The notes under the pieces: generated by a model
The model's database searches: none
Seen by the model: the letters and a program-made list of their open reading frames with translations, nothing else
What the model was told of the DNA's origin: nothing
Source: an uncultured Phycisphaerales bacterium
Lineage (GTDB): Bacteria; Planctomycetota; Phycisphaerae; Tepidisphaerales; Tepidisphaeraceae
DNA: 64,000 bases
Assembly (NCBI GenBank): GCA_963758525.1
Contig: CAVWVQ010000003.1
Span: forward strand, 2,688,001 to 2,752,000
Direction of reading: 5' to 3'
Shown here: one piece after another, positions 16,295 through 21,181 of the stretch
Layout of the letters: each line of letters begins with the position of its first letter
Numbering within the stretch: position 1 is the first letter of the stretch
Position numbers and translations under genes: made by a program

Positions 16295-16819
16295 ATGAAT
16301 GAATCAATCGAGGATGTTGCCAGGAAATGGGCTGCGGCACAGCCGCTGGTTGCTTCGTTTATTTCCTTGATTGTATCGGACTTCCATAACGCACAAGACG
16401 TGCTGCAGGAGGTCGCGGCGGCGGTGTTGTCTCACGACCCATCCCGCAGCGTCCCCGAGTCGTTTAACGCGTGGGTCATTGGGATCGCCCGTCATAAGGC
16501 GTTGGATTTTCATCGCCGTCAGACCCGCGACAAACTGGTCTTTGACTCAGAGGCGCTGTCGATCCTCGCCGAGGTGCATCAGGAGGTTCGCCAGGACCAG
16601 GGGCCGCGCCGCGAGGCCATGGAGCATTGTCTCAAGCGGCTGGCTTCCAAGGCGCGCCGGCTCATCGAACTGCGCTACCAGGATGATATGAAGCCGGGCG
16701 CGATCGCCGGGGCGATGGGGAGTAACGTCAGCGCGGTGAAGGTCGCGCTCCACCGCGTGCGGGCGGCGCTGCGGGTCTGTATTGAGGCGCGGCTCAGTTC
16801 TGGAATCGAGCTGACATGA
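16295..16819 (+). CDS. ECF sigma-70 factor
   Basis: AQDVLQEV, FNAWVIGIARHKALD (region 2); LIELRY..IA..V.VALHRVR (region 4). Confidence 0.93.
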   Translation: MNESIEDVARKWAAAQPLVASFISLIVSDFHNAQDVLQEVAAAVLSHDPSRSVPESFNAWVIGIARHKALDFHRRQTRDKLVFDSEALSILAEVHQEVRQDQGPRREAMEHCLKRLASKARRLIELRYQDDMKPGAIAGAMGSNVSAVKVALHRVRAALRVCIEARLSSGIELT

Positions 16820-18411
16820 AGGACCCGATGGCACTTCTCGACGAACACTTCGACGGCATCCTCGATGAAGCCGGGGCGGCAGAGTTGTCGGCATGGGTGA
16901 AGCAGAACCGTCGCAACGCCCGCCTTCTGGTCGATGCCGCGCGGTTGCACCAGGATCTTCGCGAACTGTTCCTTGGCCGCCGGCTTTTGGAAGAGGCGGC
17001 ATCATCAGGCACTTCGCTCCATGACGCGATGATCCTCCCCGCTATATCGCTTCCAGCCAATGATGAAGCGGAGGCGCAGACCCCTCCGGTGGCAACGGTA
17101 CCGACTCGCATTGAACCATCGACGTCGCGTTTGCGTCATCGGTACTGGAAAATCGCCGCTGCGATCGCGATCCCGATTCTGGCCGGCATCGTACTCTGGT
17201 CAGTCCTTCGCCCCGCCAAACCCGGCGGAGCTCTGGTCGCCAGCGCCTCGGCCGTTTGGGACAATGCAGTTCAGCCACCACACGACGGGCAGCCCCTTCC
17301 TGCTGGACCGCTGCAACTGGCCAGCGGGCTGGCCGAGATACGCCTTAATAACGGCGTTTCACTCGTCGTTGAAGGCCCGGCGCATTTCCAGCTTCAATCT
17401 CAGAACAGCGTCGCGCTTGAACTGGGCAAAATTACGGTAAGCGTACCTGCCACTGCCCACGGATTTACCATTCAGACTCCCTCCTCGCGCACCGTCGATC
17501 TGGGGACAGAGTTCGGCGTCATCGTGGACGACGCCGGAAATACCGAAACGCATGTCATCCGCGGCACGGTTGAAGTAACGCCCACCGCCGGTGGCGCAGC
17601 GCTGCTCTTCTCGGCAGACCACGCGGCACGCGTCGATGTCGGCGCCACTTCGGCGCAAACGATTGAGTGCCACGCGGGGAATTTTGTGCAGGACGTCCCG
17701 GCAATCGACCTTGTGGACGTCATCGCCGGCGGAGACGGGACGCAGGGACGGTCAAATAGCGGGATCGATATGGCCACTGGCAAAGCCTTGCCGGTGAAAG
17801 TCCCGGCAGGCATGAACCCCGGGCCCGAACCAACGATTCGCGGAGACGGAAAGTTCCACCCCTGCCCCTCCCTGCCATTGGGTGTCTTCATCCCGCATGG
17901 TGGGCCGACGCCTGACACAGTCGACGCTGCCGGCCACCAGTATATTTTCCCGCCCACGAGCAACCTTGCGTATCAAAACATTTGGCCCGGATCCGCCCAG
18001 CATCTGCTGGGTGGCGATTCGCCTACCACTGGTATGACCAAAGAGAATGGCTACCCGGCGCCGGGTCACCGATTACTCGAACTTCATGCCAATAAAGGAA
18101 TCACGTTCGATCTCAATGCACTGCGCACCGCTCATCCCGACCGGCCATTCTCGCATCTCGTCGCCCGTTGCGTGAATATGAATGCATATGCCGAACCAGT
18201 GATCGGTGCAATAGTCTCCGATCGATCGGAGCTTTGGATATTTGTGGATGGCGATCTCCGTGCACACAAGCTGATTCATCGCATGGACCCGCCATTCGAT
18301 GTTGACGTTCCCATCGAACCCGCTTCGCATTTTTTGACATTGGTGGTGAGCGACGGAGGAGATGGCTTCGACTGGGACGTGGTGTCGTTGGGTGATCCAA
18401 GGTTAAAATGA
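16816..18411 (+). CDS. FecR-domain anti-sigma factor with C-terminal NPCBM/NEW2-like domain
   Basis: TM helix; GFTIQTPSSRTVDLGTEFGV; HANKGITFDL; FLTLVVSDGGDG..D...GDPRL. Confidence 0.88.
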   Translation: MKDPMALLDEHFDGILDEAGAAELSAWVKQNRRNARLLVDAARLHQDLRELFLGRRLLEEAASSGTSLHDAMILPAISLPANDEAEAQTPPVATVPTRIEPSTSRLRHRYWKIAAAIAIPILAGIVLWSVLRPAKPGGALVASASAVWDNAVQPPHDGQPLPAGPLQLASGLAEIRLNNGVSLVVEGPAHFQLQSQNSVALELGKITVSVPATAHGFTIQTPSSRTVDLGTEFGVIVDDAGNTETHVIRGTVEVTPTAGGAALLFSADHAARVDVGATSAQTIECHAGNFVQDVPAIDLVDVIAGGDGTQGRSNSGIDMATGKALPVKVPAGMNPGPEPTIRGDGKFHPCPSLPLGVFIPHGGPTPDTVDAAGHQYIFPPTSNLAYQNIWPGSAQHLLGGDSPTTGMTKENGYPAPGHRLLELHANKGITFDLNALRTAHPDRPFSHLVARCVNMNAYAEPVIGAIVSDRSELWIFVDGDLRAHKLIHRMDPPFDVDVPIEPASHFLTLVVSDGGDGFDWDVVSLGDPRLK

Positions 18412-18424
18412 ATTAGGTGCATAG

Positions 18425-21181
18425 ATGCGGAAACGAGCACGCGATTTTACTCTTGTTGAGCCGCAGCGCTGCCTCAGGCGAAGATCCAAATCAGCTTTCA
18501 TCTCTGAAGGGGCTTCTTGTCAACGGCGAGACGGCTTGATTGCTAAGTTCCGTTCATTGCTCTCTCCGATCAGCTTCGCGCACTCCCCCTGCGCCCTTGG
18601 CGGGGAGGCTAACGAGGCGGGGGTTTGGGGGCAGAGCCCCCAAGTCTTTGTCGTTCTCGGCGGAACCGTGGCTGCCATCCGGCACCGCGCGGGCGGCGCG
18701 ATGCGGCGGTTGAATTCATCTCTATGCGGTCATCGGACGGACGGGTCGCAATGCCAGGCCGTGTGTTCCGAGCCGAATAAAACCTTGTTCGCGTCAACCG
18801 GGCCGAATTCACACTGTCGCAGTCACCAGCAGAACCCGAATCCGACGCCAGTGGCGTCCGATTCGAACCAATGCCTGCCGGGCCGAATGAAGCCGAGTCG
18901 CGGTCTCCAGATTGACGAGACATCGTCTTGCATGGCTGCAAGAACTATTGATGTCATAAGCGTTCCGCCGAACCGCTGGTCATGCCAGGATCATCTCCTC
19001 TTCTTGTTTGACAGGTTGTTGCTTAGCAGATTGTTGCTTGAGCCGGGCCTTGTTGGCCGCCCGCTCGTGTCCGGTGGGCTCCTGGCCCTGGTAGGCCGTC
19101 CCGTCGCGGACCATGGCAAAGAGGACACGCAGCAGGCGTCTTCCCATCGCGACGTTCGCCTTGGGCTTGACCATGTGTCCGATCAGCCGCTGGCGGATCG
19201 CCTCCTGCTTCGCGTCGGAGCGGCAGAGGGTGACCGCGGCCTTGCACAACGCCCAGCGCAGCGTGGCGCTGCCCGCCTTGGTGATGTGACCCGACTGGGT
19301 CCGGCCGGCCGACTCCTGGTTGTCGGGAGTCAATCCCGCCCAGAACTCGAGGGTGTCGGCGTTGGGAAAACGGGAGAACTCGCCGATCTCCGCGGCGATG
19401 ATGCACGCCCAGATCTCGTCGATTCCCGGCACGCTCTTGAGAATCGCAATCAGGGAGGCGAATCGCCGGTCGCGGTTGGCAAAAATGATTTTCCTGCGCA
19501 GGCATTCCCGCTGTCGCTCGATCAGGCAGACCAGGTCCAGGAAGTTGCCGAAGGCTTCGCGCTGCACGTCCTTGAGCAGATCGCCATTGGCCAGCAGCCA
19601 TTTCTGGGCGCCGGCGCCGTCCAGCTTGGGACCGCGAATGTTGGCGGCCAGGAGCATCGACCGCATGGCGTGCTTGGCGCGGGTGAGGGTGCGGGACAAA
19701 TGCCGCCAGTGCCGGCCGAGCTTGCGGAGCTGCATCACTGCTTCGGGGGCGATCCATCCCAGCGGGCACTCCCCGCGGGAGAGGCGCTGGGCGATGTCGG
19801 CCGCGTCCTTGCGATCGGTCTTGCGCCGCTTACCCCGGAGGTTGGACAACTGCGTCGCGTCGGCGATCTCGATCTTGTCCACGCAGGAGCGGAAGCGGTC
19901 GATGAACCACTCGACAAAGCCGACGGCTTCCACTGCCAGGCGGCTGGGACGCGGCAACGCCAGCATCCATTTTTCGATGCGGTCAACGCACTTGGTGTCA
20001 CAGGTCAGCGCGGCGATCTGCGTCCCCGAAGCATCGACAGCACACAGCGAGACGGTACACTTATGCAAATCCACGCCGACGAACGCGGCGTACGAAACAG
20101 GCACATCAGACATAACAAACTCCGTGTTAGGGACCAAGGGAACTTAGAACACTCCCGGAAGCGTAACGGCTTCCGCAGGCCCCTTCACGGTTTTACGCTG
20201 GTGGAACTCCTCGTTGTTATTGGAATCATCGCTGTCTTGATTGCATTATTGCTTCCGTCCCTCCAAAAAGCGCGACAGCAGGCCAGGTACGTCAGATGGC
20301 AGGCTTTCAGCCGTGATTTGTCGATGGATCCCAGCGTCATCGTCCATTACGACATGCAGAATGATGCGGGAACCTCCTTCCTGACGAATATGGCCATGGG
20401 TAATGCCCGAGACCCATCAATGGTCCCGTCCAATCTCGACGCGCAGATTCTCGACTGGTCGCAGAGCCCCTTTCCGCTGCTCTCGGTCAACTATCCCGGG
20501 CAGGTGGCCGCACTATGGTCGAATAGCGGGCGATTCCCGGGAAAGCCGGCCCTGTCGTTCAACCCAACGCTCACACCCAACGCCATGGCCTACATCGGAC
20601 AGCGGAACAATGGAATCGGTCGGATCGCCAACATGCTGCGCAAAACGCAGGCCTACACGCTTTTGTACTGGGTCTATGTGCCCCGTCCGGCTGTTGACAA
20701 CCAGCTCTTTGTGTATTGGGCTGGCAAGGGCAATTCTGCACAGATCGTGGTCACCACGGATATGGCCTGGGGCGGGAACGTCAACGCCTCGCAGGGGAGC
20801 GGTTTTGGCGGTTCCCCTACCATGACCTCATTTTCCACCGGAACAGGAGCGATTCCATTCACCTATGGGCAAGACTCGCGGTGGAATCTGTTTGCCTTCA
20901 CCAGCGATCGCAGATCTGGAGTTGCCAAGCTCTATCAGAACGGCGTGCTGGTCGCCTACCAGCAGTCGGGCAACCAGTTGATCGTCGGCCCTGACGTGGC
21001 GTATCCAACCGGCAGCGATCCTGGCGCATTGGTCTTTGGAAATTGGCCGAACCACGGTGAGAACAATATCGTCTGCGACGAATTTGGACTTTTCGACTCT
21101 GATCTTTCTCCCAACGACCCATTGATACTGGGCACCATTTCGCCACGCTTTTTCCCGATGTACACTGTGGGCGTGAATTAA
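18425..21181 (+). CDS. Prepilin-type N-terminal cleavage/methylation protein with LamG-like C-terminus, interrupted in frame by an IS110 element
   Basis: [31 protein letters not shown] from 20192. Removing 18499-20193 gives ...[13 protein letters not shown]-terminal [22 protein letters not shown]. Confidence 0.9.
18640..18979 (-). ncRNA. Putative bridge/seek RNA of the IS110 element (ends approximate)
   Basis: Contains matches to the donor junction (18715-18723, 18664-18670) and to the target (18808-18816, 18780-18784), in target-loop then donor-loop order on the minus strand. Confidence 0.75.
18980..20113 (-). CDS. IS110-family DEDD recombinase/transposase
   Basis: [20 protein letters not shown] (DEDD); [20 protein letters not shown] (catalytic Ser), [22 protein letters not shown] before ATG at 20113. 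Confidence 0.96.

Follow-up and report, generated by a model that had tools for sequence, protein, structure and literature searches.

The window analysed here, a 64,000-nt stretch of contig CAVWVQ010000003.1 from an uncultured Phycisphaerales bacterium, contains a prepilin-like gene interrupted by a transposon of the IS1111 group of the IS110 family, which carries its own guide RNA. The element lies directly behind the Phe codon of the prepilin cleavage motif, with its transposase on the strand opposite to the host gene; the host reading frame runs without a stop through all 565 codons of the element and on into the mature pilin-like protein, and the last codons of the element rebuild a prepilin cleavage site. 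The original prediction for this DNA, made from its letters alone, had described a bridge RNA with readable guides and overlooked this stop-free, in-frame insert spanning the whole element. We judge it probable, at roughly 60%, that the interrupted gene is read through and that the resulting long leader is removed by prepilin peptidase. According to this scheme, the guides, which match target and donor, would bring the element to the Phe codon of a prepilin [Gly/Ala]-Phe-Thr-Leu motif; the element would circularise and, by analogy with IS621, form a junction promoter; host ribosomes would read its antisense strand as part of a long leader; its end would restore the basic ...LHG|F cleavage site; and the host prepilin peptidase would remove the leader of about 590 residues, releasing the normal mature protein. 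The features that carry the argument are listed here.

18425 to 21181, plus strand: single 918-codon open frame comprising the host leader, the antisense of the element and the mature pilin-like protein.
18425 to 18499, plus strand: 5' part of the prepilin-like gene, a 24-residue basic leader with terminal Ala, then the target Phe codon TTC at 18497-18499.
18500 to 20194, minus strand: IS1111-type IS110 element of 1,695 bp (565 codons), its ends set at the presumed crossover directly 3' of the Phe codon.
18980 to 20113, minus strand: IS110 DEDD transposase/recombinase of 377 aa, its codons in register with the host frame.
20114 to 20191, plus strand: basic pseudo-leader coded by the element, which ends in ...RRPLHG and restores Gly at -1 of the prepilin site.
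20192 to 21181, plus strand: mature prepilin-like protein of 329 aa with the N-terminus FTLVE, a Laminin_G_3 domain and a TIGR02532 match.

The host frame is open across the family

Homologues were collected through transposase matches at E ≤ 1e-30, which occur in 11 of the 201 genomes of the class, the source genome counted. Loci from the class genomes, 27 in named genomes and 80 kept of 100 metagenome loci were pooled to give 123, with one contig entered twice (as L004 and L018). Planctomycetota account for 21 of the 27 named records; the remaining six lie on contigs shorter than 5 kb and may be mis-binned. Junctions were compared in 108 loci (nine had no recognisable right junction and six had less than 15 nt of flank), whole elements in 74 two-ended loci forming 58 clusters at 95% (49 loci missed one end or fell outside the end pattern), and the RNA in 101 loci, the other 22 showing no target loop by pattern. 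The clusters are kin, and the p-values given below are therefore too strong. A search of protein representatives gave 67 proteins at E ≤ 1e-30, which came with no genomic context, and an IS110 near a prepilin gene (L138) was excluded from the family, as its insertion lies about 190 nt upstream of the gene.

The frame is open from the host start at 18425 to 21181, and also across all four near-identical copies of the element in the source genome. Lengths are divisible by three in 71 of the 74 two-ended elements and for 35 of the 37 distinct lengths, which run from 1,590 to 1,899 bp; three distant relatives likewise have lengths that are multiples of three. In 74/74 loci the codons of the transposase are in phase with those of the host, and the whole element has no host-frame stop in 66 of the 71 in-frame loci (52 of 56 clusters). 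Within the non-coding region, the 56 clusters have 0 stops in the host frame, where the average of the other five frames would predict 274.6; those other frames are stop-free in 1 case of 280. Transposase codons whose antisense is a stop are avoided (CTA 1/1758, TCA 1/647, TTA 2/385), other A-ending codons being in use (GTA 37/1101, ACA 49/1004); in control IS110s with GC of at least 0.60 the counts are 14/631 for CTA and 11/172 for TCA. In a control drawn from host genes, 225 of 1,641 in a crude open reading frame (ORF) set were stop-free. Substitutions in the linker, the peptide that the antisense strand would encode, are spread evenly over the three codon positions (15.0, 15.5 and 16.0% in 26 pairs), as expected of a disposable peptide, and the amino-acid sequence of the linker is unconstrained. 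That selection keeps the frame open is, in our judgement, close to certain. Three unrelated IS110s (L125, L126 and L129; GC 0.67-0.73) have antisense frames open for 683-926 codons, which are probably compositional.

A prepilin site is rebuilt at the end of the element

The element ends in PLHG in 58/58 clusters, and the last 20 residues before the rebuilt site have a median net charge of +6. Class III signal peptides consist of a hydrophilic leader with a final Gly or Ala, followed by a hydrophobic tract (PMC8179133; this and the other papers cited below are represented by excerpts). The rebuilt site has such a hydrophilic leader ending in Gly/Ala, a hydrophobic tract and a Glu at +5, and TIGR02532 matches residues 588-610 of the 918-aa frame with 20.7 bits against a cut-off of 16.3. 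An in-frame host start codon is present upstream in 51 of 53 loci, the frame downstream extends for at least 100 codons in 55 of 62, and the source genome encodes a prepilin peptidase of family PF01478. In L021, L062, L078 and L081 a hydrophobic stretch opens the linker after the left G|F junction, which may in these loci resemble a second prepilin site. The host leader here holds, at 18443-18460, a degenerate second motif, D-F-T-L-V-E, 18 codons ahead of the insertion site and with no hydrophobic tract after it; it is perhaps the relic of an older duplication or insertion.

The target is a coding motif

The original prediction had the element target an amino-acid motif shared by a gene family, and the homologues bear this out for the element family. 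In the source genome, each of the four copies splits a prepilin-type gene at Phe within the motif [GA]-F-T-L-[VI]-E, and among loci with at least 55% protein identity the right junction reads F[TS][LMI]xE in 102 of 108, the other six being nested in another element (two), off-motif (three) or affected by an ambiguous base (one). The target is common to members with transposases as distant as 34-37% protein identity, and the rule for the family is approximately G(G/C)N TTY ACN YTN. Over the same range of at least 55% identity, 107 of 108 loci have TTT at the right junction, and the left junction is TTC or TTT, differing even between copies of one element; the target Phe codon therefore stays at the left end. 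All four target sites in the source genome were most likely TTC, and the TTT target proposed earlier was probably an error of reconstruction.

By analogy with IS621, for which staggered cuts have been described (PMC11208158, PMC13626964), we infer that the effective crossover falls directly after the Phe codon, a placement that would agree with those cuts provided that the host coding strand counts as the top strand. A model with TTT targets and the crossover at the TT of the Phe codon was given up on comparison of the junctions across homologues. The rebuilt site doubles as a target, and nested insertions are present; insertions into the rebuilt site of another element were seen in L094, L099, L100, L101, L112, L118 and L119, some of them between the two distant sub-families.

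A predicted bridge RNA with two loops and four guides

The RNA lies downstream of the transposase gene, and its parts are given in transposase orientation.

18789 to 18921 (approximate limits), minus strand: target-binding loop with an outer stem, a roughly symmetric internal loop, an inner stem and a variable hairpin.
18888 to 18894, minus strand: target guide 1, GGCUUCA (= Gly-Phe-A), with natural variants G(G/C)N UU(C/U) A.
18808 to 18816, minus strand: target guide 2, CAGUGUGAA, which pairs with the coding strand of Phe-Thr-Leu.
18777 to 18787, minus strand: donor guide 1, CAAGGUUUUAU, which matches the other donor end and includes AAACC.
18727 to 18775, minus strand: inner stem and hairpin of the donor loop, with 8 pairs kept in 55/55 clusters.
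18715 to 18723, minus strand: donor guide 2, AGAGAUGAA, which matches the donor end downstream of the transposase.

That this region is a bridge RNA, as originally predicted, is supported by the guides, by covariation and by a consensus fold, and the proposed layout, with the target loop first and the donor loop second, is correct. All five strings quoted in support of it are present where they had been placed. Of the four segments named as guides, the two 9-mers stand and the two shorter ones do not. The first 9-mer, TTCACACTG at 18808-18816, forms one side of a conserved internal loop and covaries with its target at the third position of the Phe codon (Phe3; cluster-level Fisher p=0.005). 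The second, TTCATCTCT at 18715-18723, occurs in all 74 two-ended loci bar single-base variants, and changes along with the donor end in the related loci L094/L106 and in the distant relatives L007-L009. AAACC (18780-18784), put forward as a target guide, is conserved, yet lies inside donor guide 1. AACCGTG (18664-18670) is not a guide, because the heptamer occurs at that position in 1 of 55 clusters while the donor end that it matches is nearly invariant.

Target guide 1, GGCUUCA, is absent from the original prediction and was located via the stem motif that closes each loop. Its variants span Gly and Ala codons as well as both Phe codons. Guide and target agree, with kinship inflating all three values, in 34 of 54 pairs at -2 (24.1 expected in shuffled pairs, p=0.002), in 23 of 54 at -1 (15.7 expected, p=0.017) and in 42 of 54 at Phe3 (28.3 expected, p=0.00015). 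In a consensus fold of 38 sequences the two target guides stand opposite each other in one internal loop, so that the region has a target-binding internal loop with two covarying guides, as bridge RNAs do, in clusters that are not independent. GGCUUCA, which pairs with the top strand, lies 5' of CAGUGUGAA, which pairs with the bottom strand, in keeping with the IS1111 seekRNA rule that the top-strand match is 5' of the bottom-strand match (PMC11187229). An earlier candidate arrangement, in which the loops matched the post-insertion junctions, was abandoned once the upstream guide at 18888-18894 had been found.

Donor guide 1 matches its donor end at 10 of 11 positions; its core takes a single form in 81 of the 101 loci, with a variant that wobble pairing allows in another 17. 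The inner stem of the donor loop shows compensatory swaps (A-U/G-C 46/8, C-G/U-A 50/5); the consensus fold pairs both donor guides with each other and does not place the donor outer stem. By analogy with IS621, a hairpin would stand between the first and second guides of each loop. Folding and covariation had been suggested as a check on the RNA. In a single-sequence fold of 18640-18979 the guides were not free (z=-1.36, with 12 of 100 shuffles equally stable), a result that says little either way.

Wobble pairing biases the target codons

The original prediction held that a single guide reads TTY ACR YTG by wobble. This applies at Phe3 and at the first Leu base, where G:T pairs are found; Phe3 is paired by Watson-Crick or G:T wobble in 72 of 73 guide-target pairs. 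At the third position of Thr (Thr3) and in Leu it amounts to a preference and not to a strict rule. With U in the guide at Thr3 the targets are ACG in 24 loci, ACC in 11, ACA in nine and ACT in one; with C they are ACG in 22, ACC in 12 and ACT in one. The guide base at Thr3 thus biases the target codon without dictating it. The last two Leu bases are frequently mismatched to the guide. On the pairs compared, the degeneracy appears as wobble together with plain mismatch tolerance and guide variants that sample synonymous codons. Tolerance of rG:dT and U:G has previously been reported for IS621 and ISPpu10.

It is improbable that one guide, decoding TTY ACR YTG strictly, alone accounts for site choice. 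All four source-genome copies fit this rule, ACA targets occur with a U guide only (9/45 vs 0/41) and the Phe3 pairing is as it demands, but 11 of the 45 U-guide loci have ACC targets, and of the 13 loci with an identical 9-mer five break the rule; the source-genome copies make up four of the eight that fit ACR YTG. The source genome has 49 sites of the form GSN TTC ACR YTG, of which five are prepilin sites, yet all four insertions are at these (4/5 occupied, p=2.4e-5), and eight genomic sites with a better match to both guides are empty. The guides are too loose for the site choice observed; therefore something else must also act, either the loss of insertions that do harm elsewhere or an additional specificity factor. 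About 60 genes in the source genome carry the prepilin motif. Among the 57 empty motif genes, 45 have TTT as the Phe codon, compared with about 35% genome-wide (crude ORF set); by motif, four of five genes with TTC-ACR-YTG are occupied and none of nine with TTT-ACR-YTG. The excess of TTT could reflect the usual codon bias near N-termini or an escape of these genes from the element.

How the interrupted gene might survive

Several points weigh against read-through with removal of the long leader. Expression, translation of the fusion, cleavage of the long leader and function of the mature protein are predictions. The class III motif is defined as short (PMC8179133), the read-through leader has 589 residues in place of a short N-terminal leader, and a literature search gave no paper in which prepilin peptidase removes leaders that run to hundreds of residues. 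Among control IS110s, six of 17 GC-rich ones have no antisense stop in the coding sequence, and the coding part of the element is for this reason weaker evidence than the non-coding part; three of 14 controls are open across the coding sequence plus 450 nt downstream. Single gaps in the alignment of the non-coding region are multiples of three in 57 of 179 cases; only the net lengths obey the rule. The host strand carries one terminator-like hairpin, at 18619-18641, against 1.9 expected. The downstream frame is short in seven of 62 loci, one source-genome copy among them, and a hydrophobic stretch near the start of some linkers (mean hydropathy over 19 residues 1.33 here and at most 2.55, in L062) could disturb membrane topology. 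One subclade (L002, L003, L004/L018, L013 and L061) has a stop in the host frame, and full read-through is therefore not required family-wide; members without read-through seem to switch to supplying a new start. An in-frame ATG lies 16-44 codons ahead of the rebuilt site, often after a purine-rich run, in L005, L009, L010, L035 and the subclade L002/L003/L004/L013/L061; L006 has a frame stop without such an upstream ATG.

Starts of this kind suggest another way in which the gene could be spared. Read-through may only keep transcription and translation coupled and avert polarity, and the mature protein may come from a separate restart with a short leader, at an in-frame ATG or GTG lying 43-45 codons ahead of the rebuilt G|F. 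We regard this as unlikely, but as an alternative to be taken seriously. Many members have an in-frame ATG or GTG at about -43, which is the antisense of a His codon conserved close to the first catalytic Asp. In the stop-bearing subclade an ATG at -44 follows a purine-rich run, L005, L009, L010 and L035 each possess a separate ATG 16-34 codons ahead of the site, and copies are located in coupled operons. However, the nearest in-frame ATG is 150-450 codons off in many clusters, the -43 ATG of the present copy lacks a clear ribosome-binding site (purine runs being found mainly in stop-bearing members), and any fusion that is made still ends in a complete cleavage site. A promoter-like site on the host strand at 20034-20061 was considered as part of a start supply and rejected, as transcription would begin after the -43 ATG. 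The gene is rescued under either reading, whether by restart or by removal of the long leader.

It is improbable that the insertion turns the gene off and that precise excision alone restores it, the open frame merely sparing downstream genes. Low-rate excision of IS621 leaves a restored site (PMC13626964), the downstream frame is broken in the seven loci noted above, and with about 60 motif genes in the genome the loss of one may be tolerated. Such phase variation would leave two facts unexplained. In nearly all loci, the transposase start and the junction are separated by a number of nucleotides divisible by three, and Gly at -1 is invariant and accompanied by a basic run, although the inverted repeat and the donor guide do constrain the last few codons. 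The remaining possibility, that the antisense frame encodes a protein needed by the element or is a by-product of high GC, gains something from the open antisense frames of the GC-rich controls but is largely refuted and very improbable, since substitutions have no codon-position bias, the 918-aa frame matches pilin families only (NCBIfam), and composition cannot yield both a sole clean host frame in the non-coding region and lengths in threes.

We are slightly inclined to see in this element a third route to invisibility within a gene, beside RNA splicing and protein splicing, in which the guides of an autonomous transposon track the codons of a protease motif, one strand codes for transposase and bridge RNA and the other for a stop-free junk leader, and the prepilin peptidase of the host deletes that leader from the protein.

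Relation to known systems

Inteins, IStrons and gene-restoring integrative elements (SXT/R391 in prfC) are mobile DNA that spares the gene it enters. Unlike these, the present element is an autonomous transposon read antisense, and its proposed removal is by a host peptidase; an Rfam scan of the window gave no family at gathering score, and so no group I/II intron RNA match, and an NCBIfam scan of the 918-aa frame gave pilin families and no intein family. Rickettsia palindromic elements and other miniature inverted-repeat transposable elements also sit in-frame within genes; they are about 100-200 bp long and non-autonomous, whereas members of the present family have 1.4-1.9 kb with their own enzyme and guide RNA. 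The Piv/MooV invertase of Moraxella is likewise an IS110-family enzyme at type IV pilin genes. It inverts a pilin segment for phase variation, unlike a transposing element read as leader.

Among the nearest known systems are the IS1111 seekRNA elements ISEc11, ISKpn4 and ISPa11 (Siddiquee et al. 2024, PMC11187229), which share the DEDD transposase, sub-terminal inverted repeats, a long non-coding region 3' of the gene, the lack of target duplication, the guide order and the overlap of the guides in the target. The targets described for them are non-coding (attC, REP and transposon repeats), in contrast to the protein-coding motif here; the host frame is kept open here, and 'reading frame' and 'pilin' each occur 0 times in the main text of that paper. 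With IS621 (Durrant et al. 2024, PMC11208160; Hiraizumi et al. 2024, PMC11208158; PMC13626964) the RNA shares the order of target loop and donor loop, each a predicted internal loop with two guides around a hairpin, tolerance of rG:dT and putative staggered cuts that leave core-adjacent positions mismatched. It differs in that the RNA lies downstream of the gene, the fit needs the host coding strand as top strand and the target is degenerate. ISPpu10 (bioRxiv 10.64898/2026.03.19.712850) shares tolerance of wobble and of distal mismatches, and a site choice narrower than pairing predicts; its extra determinant is a target stem-loop in intergenic REP sequences, whereas none was identified for the present element.

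Targeting of a coding motif with preservation of the frame over a whole element was not found in the excerpted literature; it may be catalogued in ISfinder, bioRxiv supplements or subscription papers. In the excerpted main text of bioRxiv 10.64898/2026.10.21.760802, 'prepilin' and 'pilin' occur 0 times, and in the excerpted supplements of PMC11208160 and PMC11187229 the motif was matched only in unrelated sequences.

If our preferred reading is true, a full-size transposon lives in protein-coding genes and leaves them unbroken by borrowing a processing enzyme of the host. This would account for a constraint on an IS110 lineage that has no antisense stops and lengths in threes, and annotation pipelines would label as broken interrupted genes that are possibly intact. 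The family also offers a natural set of bridge RNAs that vary over the synonymous codons of one peptide motif, with matched targets, and thus direct data on tolerance at each guide position. Two questions become testable: up to what length prepilin peptidase will process a leader, and what makes IS1111 elements choose fewer sites than base pairing would permit.

Classification, promoter and neighbouring genes

Three further features lie near the ends of the element.

18506 to 18513 (strand not applicable): sub-terminal inverted repeat of 8 bp at the end downstream of the transposase, kept in homologues.
20179 to 20186 (strand not applicable): 8-bp partner of 18506-18513 at the end upstream of the transposase.
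18518 to 18523, minus strand: -35 hexamer TTGACA, which would form a predicted junction promoter with a -10 hexamer 17 bp off after circularisation.

By all sequence tests made, the element is a member of the IS1111 group. The transposase matches PF01548 (47.8 bits), PF02371 (74.5 bits) and NF033542 (185 bits, cut-off 140), and its residues D15, E62, D100, D103 and S268 fall in the expected motifs. A DEDD RuvC-like domain followed by a Transposase_20 domain places it in the IS110 family, as do the specific target and the lack of terminal inverted repeats and of target duplication in the four copies and 74 two-ended loci. The 8-bp sub-terminal repeats are inside the 7-17 bp range of the IS1111 group (PMC11208160), and the non-coding region 3' of the transposase, also typical of that group, measures 483 nt here and 252-717 nt in homologues as delimited. 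TTGACA at this spacing from the predicted -10 is found in 41 of 58 clusters and TTGACN in 56; the predicted promoter of the circle junction would combine the two hexamers, with the donor TTT supplying the predicted -10. Four DNA sequencing runs gave coverage of the element only, and neither an empty site nor a circle was found in them.

Genes for an ECF sigma factor and a FecR-domain protein occupy 16295-18411 on the same strand, immediately upstream of the interrupted gene. Elsewhere in the source genome (G000:C3:4127903-4135205), a pseudopilin gene cluster adjoins a gene that looks PilC/GspF-like. Two copies of the element are in neighbouring genes of this cluster; both fused frames are open, and the stop overlaps the next start. 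At L015 (G000:C3:3873202 onward), the host gene after the second copy has a frame shift 36 codons past the Phe and continues in another frame, which suggests a pseudogene or an assembly error. A GC-rich hairpin at 18594-18645, in the tail of the element, recurs in unrelated contigs of the sequencing runs, and a similar one is present in the distant member L008; it is possibly a small mobile palindrome.

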